The translations under genes and the position numbers were made by a program. Below are positions 24,846 to 46,723 of a stretch of DNA of 64,000 nucleotides, one piece after another (position 1 is the first letter of the stretch; each line of letters starts with the position of its first letter). Source of the stretch: an uncultured delta proteobacterium. Lineage in GTDB: Bacteria > Myxococcota > Myxococcia > SLRQ01. The DNA lies in the NCBI GenBank assembly GCA_963727485.1, contig CAVSGM010000011.1, forward strand, positions 608,001-672,000, given 5' to 3'. The notes beneath the pieces were generated by a model that worked only from the letters and a program-made list of their open reading frames with translations, had not been told where the DNA came from and did not search any database.

Positions 24846-25299
24846 TCACCCGCCCGCGGGGTGGTTCGCCCGGTAGTTTCGGATGCACTTCTCCTTGACC
24901 AGCCAGATTCTGGTCGCGGCAGCCCTTGGGCAGCTTCGCGTCGGGGAAGTGGTCGAGGTCGGTGCACTCGTAGCCGATGGACTTGCGCATCCGGGGCGCC
25001 GGCTTCCCGTCGACGGAGAAGTCCAGGATCGCCTGGAGCGACAGGCCCTTCGGCCGGGTGATGCACAGCTGGTGCATCTGGTCGGTGACCAGGTCCTTGC
25101 AGCTCGCGCCGCCCTTGGGGGCGGTGGTCCCCGCGGCGAGCTGCTTGCCCAGGCGCACCTTCATCGTCGCCGGGTCGAAGCCCTTGGCGAGGTGGATGGT
25201 GTAGTGGCACGTGATCTTGGGCTTGCCCGCGGTGGCGGGCCGGAGGGCAAGCGCGGTCGTGAGGCTGGTCAGGGCCAGGAGCAAACTCTTGCGGGTCAT
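24846..25299 (-). CDS. Small secreted Cys-rich hypothetical protein (+1 frameshift at 24906-24910)
   Basis: Signal peptide MTRKSLLLALTSLTTALAL; GGAGG RBS; ATGA overlap; removing one base gives ...CRDQIWLVKEKCIRNYRANHPAGG*. Confidence 0.6.
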
Positions 25300-26711
25300 C
25301 GCTGTCCTCCCTTGGGCGGCGATCGGGTAGCGACGAGGCGAGGCCGCGTCGCGGAGCGTCGGCGGGGCTGGGTCCGGTGCCAGAGGCCATCGGGCGCCAC
25401 GGTCCCGTGCTCCAGGCTCCGCCACAGGTCCTCGGCCCAGGGGCGATCTGCCTCCTGGGCGAAGTAGACGGTCACCTCGCAGAGGTTGTCCTCGACGGCC
25501 ATGCGTCCTTCGAGGCGGAAGTGGGCCGGCCGGTCCCGGGTCGCCGCATGGTGCCGCACGGCGGCGCGGCCCAGGTGTCCCGGGCCGACATGCCACACGG
25601 ACTCGGGGGCCATGGGGACCATCGTCACGAGCTCCTCGGCGGTCCGGGGACGGGTGCCCGCGCCGCCGAAGCCCACGGTCACCAGGCGCACGGTCCGGTC
25701 CTGGAACCAGAAGACCATCCCCTCGCCCTTGCCGTCGACGCCGTCGTAGAAGTAGCCGGGCAGGTGCACCTGCCAGCCCCCCGGGAGCGGCATCCGCACC
25801 GGGCCCCGGCGGAAGCCGAGCCCCTCGGGGCGCGGCGGCGCCACGGCGGCCCCGGGGGCGAGGAGACCGGTGAGCTCCTGGAGCTCCGCCTCGGGGAGCG
25901 CGCGGCCAGGGTCCAGGGCCCGGGCCCGGGCGAAGGCGTCGAGGACGATCTGGTAGAGACCCCGCTCGCGGGCGTCGGGCGGGACGTGCCACCCGACCTC
26001 GGTCACCGCCAGGACCCGGCCCACGCCCTCCCAGAACCTCGCGTCCCGGGCCGGCTGCCACCAGGGGAGAAAGCGTGCGGCGAGCTCCAGCCGCTCGTCG
26101 GCGTCGGCCTTGGCGAGCGCCTCCACGAACGCCGGATCCCAGAGGCCGGTGACGCTCGCCACCTTCCCGGGGACCCCCGTCGGGATCGCCGCCAGGGGTG
26201 GCAGACCCACGCACAGGGCCGAGCCCTTCGGGTCCTGGCGCTGCTCCGGGAGCACGTCGTCGCGGAGGTGGCGGGCCAGGGCCGCCAGCCGGGTCGCGTG
26301 CAGGCGCTGGAGCCGGGCCAGGTCGCGGTGCGTCCGGTAGCCGGTGGGGTCGCCTCCGTGGGGCGCCTCGGCCTGCCAGGTGAACCCGAGGTGCTCCGCC
26401 AGGCGATCGAGCCACTCGACGAGGTAGACGTGGTACCCCGGCCCGGCGGCGGAGGTGGCCGCCGAGACCTTGAGCACGTCCCGACCTTCGGGGGTGAAGA
26501 TCACCGGCTCCTCGGCGGGGTGGAGCTGGAGCAGCAGCTCGCCAGGGCTCGCCTGGACCCGGACCAGCCGCGAGAGGTGAGGCTCGCCAGGGCCACGGGC
26601 GAACGCCTCGATCTCCGCGGCGACCTCGGACCAGGGCCGGCGCCGACGTGCCGACCGGCGGCCCCGCAGCTCGATGCGGATGGCGGCGCGGGGCTCGAGC
26701 GCGACGGACAT
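25296..26711 (-). CDS. Hypothetical protein, paralogue A
   Basis: ATG 26711 after GAGGAGG; shares LHPAEE, AGPGYH, GDxTGY, RFxPWW, GFRRG, LPGGW, LPGYF with the adjacent gene. Confidence 0.8.
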   Translation of the reverse strand: MSVALEPRAAIRIELRGRRSARRRRPWSEVAAEIEAFARGPGEPHLSRLVRVQASPGELLLQLHPAEEPVIFTPEGRDVLKVSAATSAAGPGYHVYLVEWLDRLAEHLGFTWQAEAPHGGDPTGYRTHRDLARLQRLHATRLAALARHLRDDVLPEQRQDPKGSALCVGLPPLAAIPTGVPGKVASVTGLWDPAFVEALAKADADERLELAARFLPWWQPARDARFWEGVGRVLAVTEVGWHVPPDARERGLYQIVLDAFARARALDPGRALPEAELQELTGLLAPGAAVAPPRPEGLGFRRGPVRMPLPGGWQVHLPGYFYDGVDGKGEGMVFWFQDRTVRLVTVGFGGAGTRPRTAEELVTMVPMAPESVWHVGPGHLGRAAVRHHAATRDRPAHFRLEGRMAVEDNLCEVTVYFAQEADRPWAEDLWRSLEHGTVAPDGLWHRTQPRRRSATRPRLVATRSPPKGGQR

Positions 26712-26781
26712 GGCCTCCTCCTCACGAGGATGGGACCACGGGGCCGACTCGTCCGCCAGGTCCTGGATCACATCTGCCGGC

Positions 26782-28084
26782 TCACCCGCTCTCGAAGGCG
26801 ACGCTGCGCCAGACCTCGAGGGCCCAGTCGCGGTCGGCCTCATCGGCGAAGGCGACGGTGAGGAAGAGCCGCGCGTCGTCCGCCGCGTCCTCGGCGACGA
26901 TCCGCCCGTGGAGGACCCACCATGCCTTCCCCTCGTCGTCGGTGTCGCGGAAGACCGAGGCGAAGCCGATGGTGCTCTCGGTGTGGTGCCACTCGGCGTT
27001 CTCGGGCGGGTCGAGCTCGCGGAGGATCGCCTCGAGGGGCCTCTGGTCCGAACCGTCCCGCGGGCTGGCCACGGCGGTGACGCTCACCTGCCGGTCGCCG
27101 AACCAGAAGCGCGCGGTCTCGTCGGGGACCGCGTAGTCCTCGTGGAAGTACCCGGGGAGGCGGACACGCCAGCCGCCGGGGAGCGGCAGGTTCACCTCGC
27201 CCCGGCGGAAGCCGATGCCGGTGGGCGAAGGCGGCGTGTCCTCGGCGGCGTCGGAGAGGAGGCGATGGAGCTCGGAGACCTCGGCCGCCGGCGGGACCCG
27301 CGCGGGGTCGAGCGCCTGGGCGCGCTCGAAGCTGTCGAGGACCAGCCGGTAGAGGTCCCGGTCGGCCTCGGTGGTCGCCGGGCGCCAGGCGACCCGGGTC
27401 CACGCCAAAGACCGCGCCACGCCGTCCCAGAACCCGGCGCCGGTCCCCCGCTCCCACCAGGGGAAGAAGCGCGCGGCGAGGAGCTGGGCGGTGTCCTCGT
27501 CGGCGACGGCCAGGGCGTGGAAGTACGCCTCGTCGAGGTAGCCGAGGCACGCCGCCAGGCCCTGGGGCGCCCGGGCGGGCTGGGGTGCGCTCGAGAGGAG
27601 GCCCAGGGCCCACGCGGGCTCCTCGGCCGGATCGCCCTGGCGCCGCGCGAGGTGCTTCGACGAGCCTCCGCGCCAGCCCCCGGAGCCACACCGCGTGCTC
27701 GGCCTGGAGGGCGTCGAAGCTGCGGTGGTCGAGGTAGCCGGTGGCGTCGCCGGCGTCGGGCCCGTCGCCGATCCAGGTGACGCCCAGCGACCGGCCGAGG
27801 TCCTCGAGCCAGCCCACCAGCCAGGCGTGGAAGCCGGGCCCGGCGACGGCGCTTCCGCCCTGGACCACGAGGGCGCCGGTGGAGTCCGGGTAGAAGACCA
27901 CTGACTCCTCGGCGGGGTGCAGGTCGACGTAGAGGACGCCGTCGGCGGCGTCGCAGCGCACCACCCGGGCCAGGAGCGGATCCCCGGTGTGCATCGTGAA
28001 GGCCTCGATGGCCTCGGAGAGCTCGGTCCAGGTGCGTTGGTTCAGGTCTTCATGCGGTACGTGCAGCTTGAGTCCAAGACCCAT
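26782..28084 (-). CDS. Hypothetical protein, paralogue B (+1 frameshift near 27657)
   Basis: N-half in ORF 26840..28084, C-half in the frame of 26782..27420; joined protein is colinear with paralogue A. Confidence 0.78.
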
Positions 28085-28213: not shown

Positions 28214-28844
28214 TCAGGCGGCGACCTTTGACCCGGTCTTCTCGCGCACCTCGTCCGCCGTCACCCCGTCGGCGGCCTCGACCAGCCGGAACCCCTCCGG
28301 CGTGCAGTCGAGGACCGCGAGGTCGGTGATCACCCGGTCCACCACGCCCCGCCCGGTGAGCGGGTAGGTGCACTTCTCGAGGAGCTTGTGCTCGCCCTTC
28401 TTGGACACGTGGGTCATCAGGGCGATGACCCGCCGGGCGCCGGTGGCCGAGATCCATGGCCCCGCCGATGCCCATGGTCCGGCCCCCGGGCACCTGCCAG
28501 TTGGCGAGGTCGCCGGCGGCGCTGACCTGCATCGCCCCGAGGACGGCCAGGTCCACGTGCCCGCCGCGGATCATCGCGAACGAGAGCGCCGAGTCGAAGG
28601 TCGACCCGCCGGGGACCACCGTGACCGTCTGCTTCCCGGCGTTGATGAGCTGCGGGTCCGCCTCGTCCTCGAAGGGGAACGGGCCCATGCCCAAGAGCCC
28701 GTTCTCGCTGTGGAACCACACGTCCTGCCCCGGGCCCACCATCCCCGCGACCAGCGTCGGCAGGCCGATGCCCAGGTTCACGACGCTCCCCGGCGCGATC
28801 TCCTTCGCCGCGCGGGCGGCCATCTCTTCCTTGGTCCAGGCCAT
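28214..28844 (-). CDS. 3-oxoacid CoA-transferase subunit B (+1 frameshift near 28449)
   Basis: VNLGIGLPT, catalytic SENG, LINAGKQ, MIRGGH, GGAMDL, CTYPLTG, ITDLAV. Confidence 0.92.
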
Positions 28845-28846
28845 GG

Positions 28847-29575
<729 letters not shown>

Positions 29576-29629: not shown

Positions 29630-30898
29630 CTAGGCGAGCGCCTCGCCCACCGCCTCGGCGAGCCCCGCGATCCCCGCCTCCAGGTCGGCGGCGGAGATCA
29701 CCAGCGGCGGCGAGACAATCACGTGCCCCATGGACGGGTACACGTGGGCGTGGATGCGCCGGGCGTGGAGCCCGGCGCGGAGCTTCTTCCACTGGGACGC
29801 GTCGGCGGAAAGATCGAAGGCCCCGAGCAGCCCCTTGCCCCTGACCGCCCGGACCCGCTCCGGGTGCCGCTCGGCCAGGCGCGTGAGCCCGCCCATCAGC
29901 GTCGTCTCGAGCGCCGCCGCCCGGGGGATGAGCCCCTCGTCCTCGTAGAGGCGCATCGCCTCCAGCCCCGCGGCGCAGCCCAGCGGGTGCGCGTAGTTCG
30001 TCAGCCCGGCGAGGAGCACCTTGTCGTCGAAGTGCCGCGCCACCTTCTCGTGGACCAGCACCGCCCCCAGCGGCGCGTAGCCGCCGGTGAGCCCCTTCGC
30101 CAGCGTGATGAGGTCCGGCGTCACCCCGAAGTGCTCGATCCCCAGCCACCGCCCGGTGCGCCCGAAGCCCGTGAGCACCTCGTCGGCGATGAGCAGCGCC
30201 CCCTCGCGATCGCAGGCCTCGCGCACCATCGGCCAGTACTCCGGCGGCGGCACCATCACCCCGTTGGCCCCGGGGATGGTCTCCAGGATCACCGCGCCGA
30301 CGTTGCCCTCCAGGCGCATCACCTCGCCGATGTGGGAGGCGCACTCGCGCGAGCACGTGGAGAGCGTCTTCCCGAAGGGGCAGGCGTGGCACCGGCAGTC
30401 CAGCGCGTGGACCACCCCGGGGATCCCCGGCTCCAGGGGCGGCCGGCGCCAGTCGCCGGAGAGCGTGAGCGCCCCCATGGTGGCCCCGTGGTAGCTGCGG
30501 TAGCGGCTCACCAGCTTGTACCGCCCGGTGACCATCCGGGCGATCTTGATGGCGTTCTCCGTGGCCTCCGCCCCGCCGAGGGTGAAGAAGACCTTGGAGA
30601 AGCCCTCGGGGGCCATCGCCAGGAGCCTGGCGGCCAGCTCGGTCTTCGCCGGGTACACCGCCGTGGGCGGCGCCAGGCACAGCTCGGCGGCCTGGCGCTG
30701 GATCGCCGCGACCATCTTGGGGTGCCCGTGGCCCAGGTTCGCCTGGTACGAGAGCGCCCCCAGGTCGAGCCACTTCCCGCCGTCGGCGGTGAAGAACCAA
30801 GCCCCCTCGCCGCCGGTGAGCTCCACCGGCCGGGCGTCCTGCTGGGCCGTCCAGGTGAAGAAGAAGGGGTGGTCCCCGGGCTGGCTCGGCCGGGTCAC
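29630..30898 (-). CDS. Class-III PLP aminotransferase (omega-amine/taurine-type)
   Basis: GGAEATENAIK, SYHGAT, IADEVLTGFGRTG, PDLITLAKGLTGGY; GTGA overlap. Confidence 0.93.
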   Translation of the reverse strand: MTRPSQPGDHPFFFTWTAQQDARPVELTGGEGAWFFTADGGKWLDLGALSYQANLGHGHPKMVAAIQRQAAELCLAPPTAVYPAKTELAARLLAMAPEGFSKVFFTLGGAEATENAIKIARMVTGRYKLVSRYRSYHGATMGALTLSGDWRRPPLEPGIPGVVHALDCRCHACPFGKTLSTCSRECASHIGEVMRLEGNVGAVILETIPGANGVMVPPPEYWPMVREACDREGALLIADEVLTGFGRTGRWLGIEHFGVTPDLITLAKGLTGGYAPLGAVLVHEKVARHFDDKVLLAGLTNYAHPLGCAAGLEAMRLYEDEGLIPRAAALETTLMGGLTRLAERHPERVRAVRGKGLLGAFDLSADASQWKKLRAGLHARRIHAHVYPSMGHVIVSPPLVISAADLEAGIAGLAEAVGEALA

Positions 30899-31962
30899 GG
30901 CGAGGCCTCCAGGGAGAAGATCTCCGGCCGGACGTGGTGGATGAGCCCCGCGGCGGCCAGCGCCTCGCCCCGGGAGAGGTCCATCACCATCGCCCCGCAG
31001 GTCGCCGACCGGTGCGGCTCCGTCGCCGTCGCCAGGTACCCGCACACCGCCCCGGGCCACCCCTCGGTGGACCCCAGGCGCCCCCAGAGGTCGTGGGCGT
31101 CGGCCAGCGGCCTCTCCGAGAGGCTCGCGGAGATGGCGTCGTAGCGCGCCTGGGTCGAGCTCACCGGCGCCACCGAGCTCACCGAGGCGACCTCGGGATC
31201 GAGGCAGTGGTCGGTGTGCACGAACCAGTCGGCGCCGCCGTCGTAGACCACCTTGCGCAGCCGCCCGCTGGTCTCGATGCCGAACGCTCCGTCCGCTCCG
31301 GCCACCAGGTAGTGGTGCCCCGAGCCCACCGGCGCCGAGAGGATGTGGTCGCGGGCGCCCTCCGCCGTGCGCGTGAGCAGCGCCCCGCGCACCAGCGCCG
31401 GCCACACCACCCCCACCTTGGCGTCGTTGGACCGCAGGTTGTTGATGGTCACCGCCACCCCGGCGTCGTTGAGGCCGGTCATGCCCAGGCAGCCCACGAG
31501 GCTGAAGAGCCAGGCCCCGGGCTGGTCCCCGGCGGACGGCACCCGGAGCATCATCACGAAGGGGATGGCGCTGGCGTGCATGTCCCAGGTCTGCCCCAGC
31601 ACCGGCCCGCTCGGCGTCCGGGCGAACGCCGCGGTGCACCCGCCGTCGTCCCCGGGCGCCGCCGGGTCGAGGTCCCGCAGGTCCGTGTAGTGGTTGAGCA
31701 CCACGATCTCCGCCGGGGTCCGCCCGCTGCCGTCGGCGATGCCCATCAGCTCGGCGTAGAGGTCGGGGTGGTAGTGCTCCAGCACCGGCAGGTGCCGCGC
31801 GGCGATCCCCAGGACCGTGGCGTCGTCGGGGAACTGGCCGATGGTCCGGGTGAGGTGCACCCGCAGGTCCACCAGGCTGCCGATCTCGTGGCGGAACGCC
31901 TCGCCGTGGATCCGCCCGCGCTCCACGGGCGGCGCGTCGTCGGGGAGCTCGAGGATGCGCAT
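30895..31962 (-). CDS. Peptidase C45 / acyl-CoA:amine acyltransferase family Ntn-hydrolase
   Basis: ERGRIHG, ELMGIADG, autocleavage GG|CT, GQTWD, GLNDAGVAV; TGATG overlap. Confidence 0.88.
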   Translation of the reverse strand: MRILELPDDAPPVERGRIHGEAFRHEIGSLVDLRVHLTRTIGQFPDDATVLGIAARHLPVLEHYHPDLYAELMGIADGSGRTPAEIVVLNHYTDLRDLDPAAPGDDGGCTAAFARTPSGPVLGQTWDMHASAIPFVMMLRVPSAGDQPGAWLFSLVGCLGMTGLNDAGVAVTINNLRSNDAKVGVVWPALVRGALLTRTAEGARDHILSAPVGSGHHYLVAGADGAFGIETSGRLRKVVYDGGADWFVHTDHCLDPEVASVSSVAPVSSTQARYDAISASLSERPLADAHDLWGRLGSTEGWPGAVCGYLATATEPHRSATCGAMVMDLSRGEALAAAGLIHHVRPEIFSLEASP

Positions 31963-34900
31963 CAGAGGACCTCCTCCAGGGCGTCGTGGAGCCGGGTGGC
32001 CGCTGACGCGTCGAAGTCGAGGGGTGGGATCACCGCGAGGTGCCCGCCGGGGAAGGGACGGAGGACGACCCCGAGCTCGGCGAGGTCGTCGAAGAGCTCC
32101 TCGCCCCGGGCGCCGGCGTGGATCACCCGGTAGAGCCCGAGGCCGTGGACCTCGAGGCCCGCGGCGACGGCGGGCTCGAGGGCCCGGTCGAGCTCGGCCA
32201 CCGCCGCCTCGAGGTCGAGGCGCCGCGCCGCCCGGAGCTGGTGGTGCTCGCGGACCAGCGACAGCTCGTCGCCGTCCCAGGTCGACACCATCGTCAAGGG
32301 CTTCTCCACGAAGAACCCGTCGGACACGTGGAGGTACCCGGTCTGGGCGCCGCCCCACCAGCCGACGATGTCCGGCGCGAAGCCCGCGCTCCCGGCGAAG
32401 GGCCCCACTCCGTTGCGGTAGGCGGCCGTGGTGGTCTCCATGAGCACCACCGGGATCCCCAGCGCCTCGCGGAGCGCCGCCAGCGCCGGCCAGAACGCCT
32501 CGGGCACCACCCGCCCGGTGCGCTCCTGCACCGCCTCCAGGTAGAGCCCCAGCACCTTGTCGGGCCCCCCGGCCGCCGTCACCGCCGCGCGGATGGCCGC
32601 CACCGTGGCCTCGACCCCGGCGACCGCCGGGTGGGGCACCCGCGGCCAGTCGAACCAGGGCGCGCCCTGGACGTGCACCGCCGGATCCGAGAGCGAGCGC
32701 GCCGCCGCCGTGGTGTGCCCGAAGTAGCCGCCCTCGAGGCCGAGGGCCACCTGCCCTGCGGGCCGGTGGTAGCGCAGGATGCGCAGGGACTTGTCCGTGG
32801 CCTCGTCCCGGCTCGAGGTGAGGTAGAGGTGCGGGTGCGCCGGCACCAGGGCCTGCACCCACTCCACCGCCCGGACGATGGCGGGCGTCACGTAGTTGCA
32901 CAGGGTGATCTTGTTCACCGTGGGCCCGAAGAGGCGCCCCTCGGCGGCGGCCTCGCGCAGGTCCACCGGCGGCGTGGCGAAGGGCCGCGAGAGCCCCGAG
33001 GCGAGATCGAGGGTGGGCAGGGCCTCGCCGCCCCGGGGCGTCGGTACCGGCGCCGCCTCCACCCCGGGCGCCGGGGGCCCCAGGGGATCCGGAAGTACAG
33101 CGCCACTCCGTCGGGGCGCCCGTACTGCCCGTGGAGCACCGTGACCAGGTGCGCCCCGTAGCGCCGGTTCAGCCGCCGCATCGCCGGGGTGTGGCCCACC
33201 CGGTTGCGCCCGCTGGAGAAGCGGTAGCGCGGCGTGCCGTCCGGGCGCGTCATGGCCCGGGCGGCCTCGAGCTGCGCCTGCTTGAGGGCGTGCCCGAGCC
33301 CCAGCCCGTGGTAGTCCGGGTCCAGGGTGACCGTGCGCGAGTAGAGGGTGTTCTCCCGGCCGAGCATGGGGTCGGCGTCGGGGCCGGGGACGTCGCCGGC
33401 GAGCTCCAGGGGGATGCCCACCGCGAAGCCCACCATCCGCCAGTCGCCGCCGTCGCGGACCTCGGCGACCACCGGCACCCCCTCGGGGTGCTCGATGGCC
33501 TCCTGGAGACGCGCGGGGGGATCCTGCCGCGCCGGTTCGAAGACCCGGGCCTCGAGGTCCACCAGGGCCTGGAACGCCGCGGACCGCTCGGCGGGATCGA
33601 GGACGCGCACCCGGGTCTCGGGGCCCGTGCGCATCCCGGCCCGGGGCGGCGGATCCTCCCAGGCCGGCGGCGTCTCGCCGGGGTGGGCGTCGAGCCAGGT
33701 CAGCGACGCGTGGATCGCCACGAAGAGGGCGTCGACGTCGGCCTCGGTCCAGGTGGCGTTGAGGCGGTAGCGGGCGGTGCGGTCCCCGGCGGCGAAGACG
33801 ATGGCCCCCCGGTAGAAGCGCTGGGCGATGTACGCGCCCAGGTGGGCCGGCGAGGGGAGGTCGAAGGCCATCGCGAACCCCCGGCACCGGGGGCGCGTGA
33901 CCAGCCCGGGCCACCGCTCGGCGAGGTGGTCGAGGCGGGGCCGGACCATGGCCTCGACGATCTCCGCGTTCTCCGGCGTCGACGCCAGCTCGGCGTGGAG
34001 GCGCCCGCGGATGAGGGACGCCGCCTGGGTGGGCGTCGGCTCCGGGTCCTCGAAGCGGCTGACCACCACCCCCACCTGTGCCCGCTTGGCGAAGACCACC
34101 GCGTCGGGGTGGTCGGGGTTCCCGTCCCGGTCGGCCAGCCCGAAGCGGCTGTGCCAGGCGAAGGGACCGCCGAGGCCGAAGCCCGTCTGCACCTCGTCGA
34201 AGATGAGCGCGACCCGGTGTCGCCGGGTCAGGAGCCGGAGCGCCCGGAAGAAGCGCCCGGAGGCGTAGCGGTCGCCCCCCTCGCTCTGCATCGGCTCGAT
34301 GATGCACGCCAGGTATTCGCCGGTGGCAAGCGCCCGGTCCACCGCCAGCAGGCTCTGGATCTCCGTGGCCAGGAGCGCCGGGTCGCCGTCGGCGCCGTCG
34401 GGGGACGCGGGCCCGTAGCGGTCCGCGAGCTCGGCGAGGCGGCCCTCGGCCACCGCGTCGAGGAAGCCGTCGGGCTCCGCCGGCTCCCGGTCCATGGGCC
34501 GGGTCCACAGGGGGAAGGGCGCAAACGTCGCCTCGTAGCCCTCGAGCTCATACGGGCCCCGCTTCGCCGGGTTCGCCGTGGCGTGGAGCGGCAGGAGGGT
34601 GCGCCCGTGGAAGGCGCCCTCGAAGGCCAGCACCCTCCGGGCCGCCGCCGGGGCCTCCTGGCGGCACAGGGCCAGGGCCTTCTCGTTGGCCTCGGATCCG
34701 CCGCTGGCGAAGGTGACCTCCGGGAGCCCGGGCACCAGCCGGCGCAGGGTCTCGGCGAAGGCCCGGGCCTCGGGGCTGTCGGGATCGGCGGTGTCCGGGT
34801 TTGCGAGCGGCGTCTCCCCGAAGGCCCCCTCGAAGAAGGCGGCGACCACCGCGTCGGCGCCGAAGCCCGCGGGGAGGGTCGCCGTCTGGCTCATCCCGTC

Positions 34901-35185
34901 GAGGACCGAGAGGGGCCTGCGGTCGATGGACACGTACCAGGGCCCGTAGGACCGGAGGTGATCGAAGACCGCCGGCTTCTTCTCCCGGACGATCCCCGCG
35001 GCGTAGAGCCGCTCGAGCCAGGCCTCGCTCTCGGGGAGCCGGCCGCCCTCGGGGAGCCGCAGCCCCAGCGGCCGCGGGCGGTTCACCAGGTCGCGGCCGG
35101 CGTCGCGGCGCTCCTCGTCCCGGTGGCGGGCTTCGAGACGATCCAGGTCGGATCCGGGGAGGGGAGAAGGGGTGCTCTGCGCCAT
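31962..35185 (-). CDS. Fusion of class-III aminotransferase (LAT/GABA-T-like), GNAT and degenerate class-III aminotransferase (-1 frameshift near 33085)
   Basis: N-domain [50 protein letters not shown]-domain [22 protein letters not shown]; one added base joins the frames. Confidence 0.82.
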
Positions 35186-35306: not shown

Positions 35307-36116
35307 ATGACGGAGCATGGGGAAAGAGACGTAAAGATCTGTCTCACCATCGCCGGCACCGACTCCGGGGGCGGCGCGGGGATCGCCGCCGACCTCGCGA
35401 CCTTCGCCGCCCACGGCTGCCATGGCACCCTGGCGGTCACCTGCGTCACCGCCCAGAGCACCCTCCGGGTCGCCGCCGTCCACCCCGTGCCCCCCGGGAT
35501 CGTCGCCGCCCAGATCGACGCGGTCCTCGAGGACCTCCCCGCCGACGCCGTCAAGACCGGGATGCTCTTCGACGCCGGGATCATCGAGGCGGTCGCCGAT
35601 CGCCTGGCGGCCCACGGCGCGGCGCACCTGGTGGTGGACCCGGTCATGGTCGCCTCCACCGGGGCCCGGCTCCTGGAGGCCTCGGCCGTGGCCCTCCTCC
35701 GAGATCGCCTCCTGCCCCTGGCGGAGGTGGTCACCCCGAACCTCCCGGAGACCGAGGCCCTCGCCGGGGGCCCGGTCGCCACCGAGGCCGATCGCCTCGA
35801 GGCGGCGAGGCGGATCCTGGAGCTGGGGCCCCGGTTCGTGGTGGTCAAGGGCGGCCACGGCGAGGGCCCGGCGGTGGACCTGGTGGTGGGCCGGGACGGC
35901 ACCACCGAGCGCCTCGAGGCCCCGCGCCTCGAGACCCGGGCCACCCACGGCACCGGGTGCACCTTCTCGGCGGCCCTCGCCGCCGGGCTCGCCCGGGGAC
36001 GCCCGGTGGCCGAGGCGGCGGCGGAGGCCAAGGCCTACGTCCACCGGGCCATGGAGACCGCCTTCCCCCTCGGCGGCGGCCCCGGGCCCCTGAACCACTT
36101 CCACCGGTGGGGGTGA
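35307..36116 (+). CDS. thiD: Hydroxymethylpyrimidine/phosphomethylpyrimidine kinase
   Basis: TIAGTDSGGGAGIAAD, KTGML, VDPVM, TPNLPE, KGGH, THGTGCT, GPLNH. Confidence 0.95.
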   Translation: MTEHGERDVKICLTIAGTDSGGGAGIAADLATFAAHGCHGTLAVTCVTAQSTLRVAAVHPVPPGIVAAQIDAVLEDLPADAVKTGMLFDAGIIEAVADRLAAHGAAHLVVDPVMVASTGARLLEASAVALLRDRLLPLAEVVTPNLPETEALAGGPVATEADRLEAARRILELGPRFVVVKGGHGEGPAVDLVVGRDGTTERLEAPRLETRATHGTGCTFSAALAAGLARGRPVAEAAAEAKAYVHRAMETAFPLGGGPGPLNHFHRWG

Positions 36117-45163: not shown

Positions 45164-45656
45164 CCGGGACCTCCCGGTAGCTGCCGTCGAGGAGCCGGTC
45201 GAGGAGCACCTCGCAGGTCCGGTCGACGATCTCGAAGACGGTCTCGAAGCCCCGCTGCCCGCCGTAGTAGGGGTCGGGGACGTCGTCCCAGGGGTGGCCC
45301 TCGGGGTCGAAGGCCCGGAAGGGCACCAGGCGCGAGAGGGCCGAAGGCGGCGCCCGGTCCACCAGGTCCCCGTGGCGGTCCGCGTCCATGGCGAGGAGCA
45401 GGTCGAAGGTGTGGAAGTCGGCGTCGCCGACCTGCTCGGCCTCGCCGCCCATGTCCACCCCGTGGTCGGCGGCGGTCAGGCGCATCCGGGCGTCCGGGGG
45501 CTCGCCGACGTGCCAGGCGCCGATGCCCCGGGAGGCGATGACCAGCCGGTCCAGGACGCCGCGGGCGCGGGCCTTGTCGCGGAGGACGGCCTCGGCCAGG
45601 GGGGAACGGCAGATGTTCCCCAGGCAGACGAAGCAGACGCTTACCGGCTCGGACAT
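45135..45656 (-). CDS. Low-molecular-weight protein-tyrosine phosphatase
   Basis: P-loop VCLGNICRSPLAE, DLLLAMD, DVPDPYYG. Confidence 0.95.
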   Translation of the reverse strand: MSEPVSVCFVCLGNICRSPLAEAVLRDKARARGVLDRLVIASRGIGAWHVGEPPDARMRLTAADHGVDMGGEAEQVGDADFHTFDLLLAMDADRHGDLVDRAPPSALSRLVPFRAFDPEGHPWDDVPDPYYGGQRGFETVFEIVDRTCEVLLDRLLDGSYREVPGGPNATKRR

Positions 45657-45717
45657 GGGGCCCGTGTATCAGGCACCGGCTCCCCGCGCCATGCCGCGCG
45701 CGAGGGAGGGTGGGGGA

Positions 45718-46588
45718 CTACGCGGCCCGGAGGCCGAGGATCCGCCGGGTCTCCTCGGGGCTGGCGATCTCTCGCCCGGCGTCCCGGGCCACCTGCGCCA
45801 GCGCCGCCACCAGCGCGCCGTTGGACGACGCCTTCTCCCCGTCCGGGAGGTAGAAGGTGTCCTCGAGGCCGGTGCGCAGAATCGCCCCCGAGCTCGGCGG
45901 TCTTGCGGTGGAGGTCCCAGACCTCCTGGCGGCCGATGCCGATGACCTGCCAGTGGGTCCCCGGGACCATCTCGGCGATGAGCAGGGGCAGCCACTTCGC
46001 CTTGGCGGGCATCCCGCTGGCGACGCCCATGACCAGGGAGACGTGGGGCGGGCTCGGGACCAGGCCCCGGCGGACGTAGAGGCCCACGCTGCGGAGGATG
46101 CCGGTGTCGAAGCACTCGCACTCGGGGACCACGCCGTGCTCCTTCATGGCGGTGGCGAACTGCTCCACCTTGTCCACCGGGTTGTCGAAGAGCATCGGGG
46201 GCCAGGCCCACGCGTCGTTCGCACGGAGCTTGAGGTAGTTGAGCGACCCGGCGTTGAGCGCCGCCATCTCCGGGTGGACCCGCTCGAGGCAGGCCAGGGG
46301 ACCGGAGATGTCCGGGCCCACGACGCCGGTGCTCATGTTGATCACCAGGTCGGGGCACTCGGCGCGGATGGCGTCGATCACGGCCCCGGCGACGTCCGGA
46401 TCCCAGGAGGGCAGGCGGCCCAGGCCCGGCGCCTGGCTGCGGAAGTGGCAGTGGACGATGGACGCCCCGGCGTCCCGGGCGCGACGGGCCTCGGCGGCCA
46501 TCTCCTCGGGGGTCACGGGGACGTGGTGGCGCTCGGGGTCGGTGAGGACACCGGTGAGGGCGCAGGTGAGGATCGCCTTGTCGGACAT
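45718..46588 (-). CDS. Beta-keto acid cleavage enzyme family (BKACE/Kce, DUF849; +1 frameshift at 45879-45883)
   Basis: TCALTG, PVTPEE, VHCHFR, NMSTG, GSLN, PECECFD; corrected C-terminus RTGLEDTFYLPDG...ASPEETRRIL. Confidence 0.92.
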
Positions 46589-46723
46589 GGGGGCCTCCTT
46601 CGGGCGGGCGCCATGCTCCTCATCGTTGATTGACAAGTCAAGCGGTACGGGACCGGGCGCACCCCGGGCGCCGGCGGGCGGCGGCCGCGCCCGGGGCCGT
46701 GGGGCGGGCCCGGCGCGGGCCCG

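Follow-up and report, generated by a model that had tools for sequence, protein, structure and literature searches.

Lysine epsilon-aminotransferase (LAT; TIGR03251, PDB 2CIN) and the eukaryotic gamma-aminobutyrate (GABA) aminotransferase (PDB 1OHV), dimeric class III enzymes that work with pyridoxal phosphate (PLP), are the best matches in sequence and fold of the protein described here. LAT forms a homodimer in which every subunit has its own PLP site; the active-site portion of one account of the enzyme (PMC9780415) draws that site from Gly128, Ala129, Phe167, Arg170, Glu238, Glu243, Asp271, Gln274, Lys300 and Arg422 of one subunit and from Asn328, Ser329 and Thr330 of the other. The gene in question lies on the minus strand at 31962..35185 of a 64,000-nucleotide stretch of DNA from an uncultured delta proteobacterium (contig CAVSGM010000011.1, positions 608,001 to 672,000), the whole of which is called the window in what follows. 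Its 1074 codons (an assembly break being discounted) join an active class III aminotransferase, a GNAT domain and a pseudo-aminotransferase. The protein is real and widely conserved among bacteria; pseudo-dimers made of a single chain have precedents in PLP families other than this one.

The division of labour between the two aminotransferase parts is seen by counting. The search listed 239 homologues (the window's own protein left out), of which 189 are single chains with the two parts almost complete and 50 are truncated or have lost the frame; the residue counts given here are over those 189 chains, which are related sequences and not independent ones. The LAT-like N-domain (33686..35038, minus strand, placed by Pfam and the residue counts) retains G163, F192, R195, E297, E302, D330, Q333, K367 and R474, the respective counterparts of LAT Gly128, Phe167, Arg170, Glu238, Glu243, Asp271, Gln274, Lys300 and Arg422, each in 189/189 chains; K367 (34085..34087, minus strand) is the PLP lysine. 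What it has shortened is its own S/N-T-W donor loop, which in all 189 chains has 8 residues less than that of the C-domain, and the spacing from the lysine position to the helix arginine is invariably 26 in N-domains and 34 in C-domains. The C-domain (31965..33017, minus strand, placed in the same way) has G, A, S, P or D at the lysine position in 186/189 and V, I, S, F or M at the aspartate position in 176/189. Its phosphate cup is filled, with Arg for LAT Gly128 in 174/189 and Asp for Ala129 in 184/189, and the Arg170 position is His in 182/189. It nevertheless keeps both of the segments that a partner subunit donates: NKITLCN (32895..32915, minus strand; K60, T62 and N65) and STWDGDE (32265..32285, minus strand; S269, T270, W271, G273, D274 and E275, with T270 equivalent to LAT Thr330). 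Each of those nine residues is present in 189/189, and the two segments (KxTxxN and STWxGDE) align to LAT without gaps. The Glu243/Arg422 switch of LAT, together with Arg170 and Gln274, is accordingly found in the N-domain (E302, R474, R195, Q333) and the partner's Ser-Thr pair in the C-domain (S269, T270). An earlier sequence-only reading of the window had noted PLP residues but no S/N-T-W-x-G loop in the N-domain, and a Thr loop without the Asp and Lys in the C-domain; all of this is supported by the family-wide counts, and the second donated segment and the filled phosphate cup are additions to it.

Comparison of the C-domain and N-domain profiles gives a probability of 98.9 (E 2e-16). In a quick tree, several rows of which are of odd composition, a split with support 99 separates two LAT proteins and both kinds of domain, N and C, from ArgD, AstC, GabT, PuuE, PatA and the second aminotransferase of the operon, and another, with support 88, sets N and C together. 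The tree is consistent with an origin by duplication of a LAT-like gene.

How the two parts would fit together was examined by structure prediction. The AlphaFold2 model of an intact homologue (P0028; 1054 residues, with identities of 56% and 61% to the window protein's two parts) has a mean predicted local distance difference test score (pLDDT) of 96.2 and a predicted template modelling score of 0.95, and its best fold match is LAT. With the window's own N-domain (residues 10-512) and C-domain (20-375) supplied as separate chains, the predicted complex scores 0.94, against 0.00 for the best of 3 controls, the runs agreeing in at least 90% of contacts and the partner pLDDT being at least 90; the same mark is reached by 51/78 solved complexes and 2/108 mismatched pairs. 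The predicted interface (N 160-165, 194-198 and 366-367; C 63-69, 264-265 and 267-271) takes in the N-domain's phosphate cup, HGR motif and lysine and the two segments donated by the C-domain, so that the C-domain's Thr loop would complete the N-domain's site, as the sequence-only reading had suggested. Two points weigh on the other side. The complex score may stem from likeness to the solved class III homodimers, and because the halves of a duplicated enzyme can pass on that likeness, the pairing of N with C is supported by the prediction and not shown by it; moreover, a domain-swapped dimer of two chains is possible. Taken together, the residue counts, the loop deletion, the P0028 model and the predicted interface argue for a one-chain pseudo-dimer with complementary loss, and we consider an intramolecular arrangement with one PLP site highly probable.

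In the assembled sequence the gene is interrupted. The aminotransferase and GNAT frame starts at 35185 (minus strand) and the degenerate aminotransferase is read in another frame, between about 33089 and 31962, the apparent frameshift falling at a G run (33083..33086, no strand assigned) that is one base short. The fusion had originally been made to hinge on one base near 33085. A short-read contig from run X1 (597 bases, 32824-33419, depth 3.6) supplies that base as a fifth G in the four-G run and differs from the window at one other letter; the correction is thus drawn from one low-depth contig. The assembly is error-prone here, since one-base breaks also interrupt two further genes, that for CoA-transferase subunit B near 28447 and that for a beta-keto acid cleavage enzyme (BKACE) near 45890. 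(The latter gene, at 45641-46636 on the minus strand, is read as two pieces; the former break is likely another assembly error, and no contig bridging it was found.) A true frameshift, or two separate genes, in the source organism would account for the break as assembled, which a single contig of low depth bridges, but that contig matches the window in all but 1 letter of 597 apart from its extra base, breaks of the same kind occur elsewhere in the window, and there are no candidates for a separate gene among the 119 short matches to the C part. Those matches begin in the GNAT domain or earlier (58), in the C-domain (50) or in the linker (11, of which ten lie on contigs under 6 kb and one has no listed contig), and all of them look like fragments. 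We regard either alternative as scarcely credible: the interruption at 33083 comes from an error of assembly, the fusion is real, uninterrupted homologues are the rule, and that the product is one chain is virtually certain.

The motifs on which the sequence-only reading was built are all at their places on the minus strand: FHGRT (R195), DEVQTG (D330) and FAKRAQVG (K367) in the N-domain, MVSTWDGD (its T at 32280-32282) and a further 10-residue motif within a 17-residue one. Pfam recognises Aminotran_3 (PF00202, 111 bits) and Acetyltransf_1 (PF00583, 21.7 bits against a cut-off of 20.7) in the first part of the gene, and scores the second part at 28.5 bits for Aminotran_3, below the cut-off of 30.5.

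Homologues with a named source come from Myxococcota and their kin, which makes that phylum the likely home of the window as well. The C-domain is found in 38/401 genomes of the phylum, concentrated in few families; a search of plasmids returned distant aminotransferases only. There is also a longer form of the protein, of about 1550 residues, with an aldehyde dehydrogenase at its N-terminus; of the 25 named genome loci extending into the C-domain, 24 have this dehydrogenase, and Haliangium has such a four-domain form. In some lineages (P0098, L039, L041, L048) a further stretch of about 100-150 residues separates the active aminotransferase from the GNAT domain. Among the wrong names that the protein carries in databases are PutA and GABA aminotransferase.

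Four genes follow the fusion, tightly packed on the minus strand. The first (30895..31962), whose start overlaps the fusion's stop, encodes a C45 N-terminal nucleophile (Ntn) amidohydrolase/acyltransferase, a predicted deacylase. It is followed by a second, ordinary class III aminotransferase of the PRK06062 or taurine and beta-alanine:2-oxoglutarate type (29630..30898), and by subunits A (28847..29575) and B (28214..28844, broken near 28447, the family call coming from relatives) of a 3-oxoacid CoA-transferase. At the 25 named loci the C45 gene is present in 20 (directly next to the fusion in 17), and the second aminotransferase and the CoA-transferase in 19 each. In 17 loci from the search of the phylum, which are mostly more distant, the corresponding numbers are 9, 5 and 3; linkage therefore loosens with distance. 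Counted over whole genomes, C45 occurs in 37/38 with the fusion and in 40/401 overall, and the second aminotransferase family in 33/38 and 127/401 (a tally that includes G199, a genome marked as unpublished). The same five-gene order is kept in loci of low G+C content from metagenomes, at about 30% identity. At four of four such loci (L052, L053, L054, L056) the gene immediately upstream of the fusion encodes a D-Ala-D-Ala ligase, a neighbourhood that is probably lineage synteny. One locus without C45 (L061, 1008-16939) has a four-domain fusion amid genes for a peptide ABC transporter, an MlrC-type amidohydrolase, a flavin amino-acid oxidase with iron-sulfur subunits, another aminotransferase and a fused CoA-transferase. 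Elsewhere in the window, 25296-28084 (minus strand) holds two similar-looking tandem open reading frames of 400-500 residues with no Pfam match, the upstream one apparently frameshifted, and a thiD-like phosphomethylpyrimidine kinase gene is divergent at 35316-36116 (plus strand).

The GNAT domain (33089..33625, minus strand, placed by Pfam and fold match) sits in the linker between the two aminotransferase parts. Fourteen columns are invariant in 34 sequences, and G109 and G111 of motif A are conserved. The closest fold is Ard1 (Z 18.4, rmsd 2.5 over 151 residues); the best matches are N-alpha acetyltransferases, tied with many other GNATs at about 15% identity. Only weak NCBIfam matches were obtained for the 34 domains, with the AstA family not among them, and no PDB match below E 0.4 was found from which specificity could be read. 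Relatives of the domain also occur as stand-alone proteins of 170-200 residues and, in repeated copies, in giant proteins of 3319 and 6147 residues (P0314-P0345, P0354, P0365). The sequence-only reading had allowed for channelling, which is conjectural, or for acyl-CoA sensing. The likeness to protein N-terminal acetyltransferases and the existence of stand-alone relatives would suit a GNAT that takes no catalytic part in a pathway, acting as a sensor or in protein acetylation, with the C-domain mainly a scaffold or regulator. The invariant columns, the deacylase-type enzyme that accompanies the fusion in nearly every genome and the unrelated MlrC-type amidohydrolase that adjoins it where C45 is missing all speak against such a GNAT, and the C-domain conserves exactly the partner's active-site segments, which speaks against a scaffold. 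We think that alternative very improbable: sensing found no support, and the deacylase and CoA-transferase inherited with the fusion suggest that the GNAT catalyses a capping step.

What such a capping step might serve can be proposed in outline. A one-PLP-site pseudo-dimer with a GNAT that caps lysine, working in a catabolic route like the arginine succinyltransferase (AST) pathway, is our best explanation as a whole, and on it our judgement is evenly poised. That the route follows a logic of capping, transamination, oxidation and uncapping is probable; that lysine with a succinyl cap is its main substrate falls just short of an even balance. On this proposal the GNAT domain would cap the alpha-amino group of lysine with succinyl-CoA, giving N2-succinyl-lysine, and the pseudo-dimer would pass the epsilon-amino group to 2-oxoglutarate, the cap preventing cyclisation of the resulting aldehyde. 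The semialdehyde would be oxidised by an AstD-like dehydrogenase, which most relatives carry within the fusion and the window's genome encodes next to astA, the C45 enzyme would take off the cap to release 2-aminoadipate and succinate, the second aminotransferase would strip the remaining amino group from 2-aminoadipate, and the CoA-transferase would recharge succinate to succinyl-CoA. N2-succinyl-ornithine from the AST route probably enters the same downstream steps. In its fullest form, which we put forward tentatively, the proposal makes this the first class III one-chain pseudo-heterodimer and, with the acyltransferase and dehydrogenase, a multi-step N2-succinyl-lysine machine that stands in for LAT across entire families of predatory bacteria and serves as their AstC/AstD too.

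The fused dehydrogenase provides one clue to the substrate. AstD is its best family (335-352 bits, against a cut-off of 514), and in a separate comparison it scores 238-293 bits against AstD and 134-191 bits against PatD, PuuC and GabD. GQRCT is found in 118/120 long-form dehydrogenases, placing an Arg before the catalytic Cys where PatD has Asp; in ALDH7, according to the part of PMC11362210 that treats product binding, the aminoadipate product is bound by the Arg and the Thr on either side of the catalytic Cys. The closeness to AstD and the Arg in place of Asp tell against a route in which the same architecture would handle a diamine: putrescine or cadaverine would receive a cap, transamination, oxidation and removal of the cap would yield GABA or 5-aminovalerate, and these would be carried on to succinyl- or glutaryl-CoA by the second aminotransferase and the CoA-transferase, in a CoA-dependent counterpart of the Puu pathway. 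Such a route would give each of two omega-amines an omega-aminotransferase, the second of these enzymes does come from an omega-amino-acid family, and the order of the five genes is still kept at about 30% identity; however, an Orn/Lys/Arg decarboxylase (PF01276) was found in only 1/5 genomes (other decarboxylase families and uptake lay outside that search). We hold the diamine route to be distinctly unlikely.

The AST genes of these organisms provide a second clue. The fused dehydrogenase is the only AstD-like enzyme in 5/5 genomes tested. In four genomes with a dehydrogenase-bearing fusion, astA (whose region was examined) has no astD next to it, and in the window's genome and G002, whose fusions have no dehydrogenase domain, astA adjoins astD. 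(In the window's genome the adjacent pair is at 8194-10673 of L034, on contig G000:C3.) AstA is present in 5/5 other fusion genomes tested and AstB in 1/6, the window's genome being among those in which astB was not found; the occurrence of AstA without AstB in 4/5 of the others hints at a different succinylarginine hydrolase or at entry through ornithine. AstE (PF04952) was found in 0/5 genomes, and 2/5 have no ArgD/AstC match over the cut-off. G078, a genome in one contig, has AstA and AstB, with no ArgD/AstC over the cut-off and no separate AstD or AstE match. ArgD and AstC act on N2-acylated ornithine; the invariant N65 of the C-domain aligns with an Asn of both enzymes at a position where LAT has Asp, and this Asn presumably makes room for the N-acyl group (a supporting paper, on ArgD Asn79, was not found in the open literature).

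With the same architecture, then, the main substrate could be N2-succinyl-ornithine, the fusion being the AstC (and AstD) of a rewired AST pathway in which the GNAT domain would succinylate ornithine and C45 would replace AstE, the product being glutamate. The AstD orthology of the dehydrogenase, the regular presence of AstA, the gene content of G078 and N65 itself all favour it. It would, however, leave the conserved second aminotransferase without a job and make a second acyltransferase redundant beside AstA; AstB is rare in the genomes tested, both aminotransferase domains group with LAT and not with AstC, and the absence of canonical LAT would go unexplained. We consider the ornithine route unlikely as the main function.

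That absence bears on the lysine proposal, to which we now return. Canonical LAT is found in 23/401 genomes and in 0/38 that have the fusion; among 118 genomes outside the window's class, about 7 would be expected to have both. Several observations weigh against the proposal. The p value of 7.6e-5 for the mutual exclusion overstates the case, kin genomes not being independent. The protein scores 124.2 bits against the LAT model (TIGR03251; cut-off 520.8) and 56.5 bits against the AstC model (cut-off 609.95), and no family score reaches its cut-off. R195 would be needed for 2-oxoglutarate in any case. AstA is present in 35/41 relatives without the fusion and is to that extent little informative, and the presence of the second aminotransferase is unspecific because its family occurs in 127/401 genomes. 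That enzyme belongs to an omega-amino-acid family, its best structural match is taurine:2-oxoglutarate aminotransferase and a relative at 39% identity is encoded in an operon for pyrimidine breakdown, so that it fits a diamine route better than it fits 2-aminoadipate. Finally, the GNAT domain is not AstA-like, matching PF00583 and not PF04958, and with its fold matches tied at low identity both the acyl donor and the acceptor named above are putative.

Two other routes were considered and set aside. For a beta-lysine route ending in keto-acid cleavage, the BKACE gene is 10 kb away in the window and is not near the fusion in the other loci examined, nor was it found in G078 (one contig) or G057; KamA-like genes are present in 5/5 genomes and do not discriminate. 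For beta-alanine as an end product, methylmalonate-semialdehyde dehydrogenase is over its cut-off in only 1/5 small genomes.

It is likely that the fusion anchors an undescribed route in which lysine or ornithine is capped, broken down and uncapped; this would point to a missing part of lysine/ornithine catabolism in Myxococcota and related predators and would give C45 enzymes a candidate role in core metabolism. The family-wide counts show how a symmetric PLP enzyme with two sites can become an asymmetric one with a single site when it is duplicated and each copy loses what the other keeps. The half that holds the cofactor and the half that donates specificity are encoded apart, and each can be mutated alone, which is impossible in a homodimer and should be useful in studies of half-site reactivity and in transaminase engineering. 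Our search of the open literature (subscription papers and preprint supplements lay outside it) found no class III one-chain pseudo-dimer, no description of the fusion, in Haliangium or otherwise, and none of succinyl-lysine catabolism with a C45 enzyme.

Precedents for the architecture exist in other PLP families. The P-protein of glycine decarboxylase (GcvP) has two homologous halves, split or fused, and one PLP site; serine palmitoyltransferase has one subunit that lacks the PLP lysine, and its single-chain form has, to our knowledge, no inserted catalytic domain. The fusion resembles these in having two homologous halves, one of them without the PLP lysine. GcvP is a decarboxylase of another family, and serine palmitoyltransferase differs in PLP family and reaction. 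In the parts of two reports that concern subunit make-up, a coccolithovirus serine palmitoyltransferase has both subunits, LCB1 and LCB2, in one gene (PMC5371807) and the Synechocystis P-protein is a homodimer (PMC4767401).

The nearer comparisons are with LAT and the AST pathway. With LAT the fusion shares the Glu/Arg switch, the PLP residues and the grouping of both its domains; unlike LAT, it has a fused dead copy for a partner, Asn for the partner's Asp, Val or Ile for Asn328, an added GNAT domain and often an added dehydrogenase. With the AST pathway (AstA, AstC, AstD, AstE) it shares the order of capping, transamination, oxidation and uncapping, a dehydrogenase of the AstD clade and the presence of AstA in the same genomes; in contrast to that pathway, its acyltransferase is not AstA-like, its aminotransferase is LAT-like, its deacylase is a C45 Ntn enzyme, and its operon adds a second aminotransferase and a CoA-transferase. 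Judged from sequence, the fusion is by family tests a member of neither LAT nor the AST pathway, and it appears to work like both.

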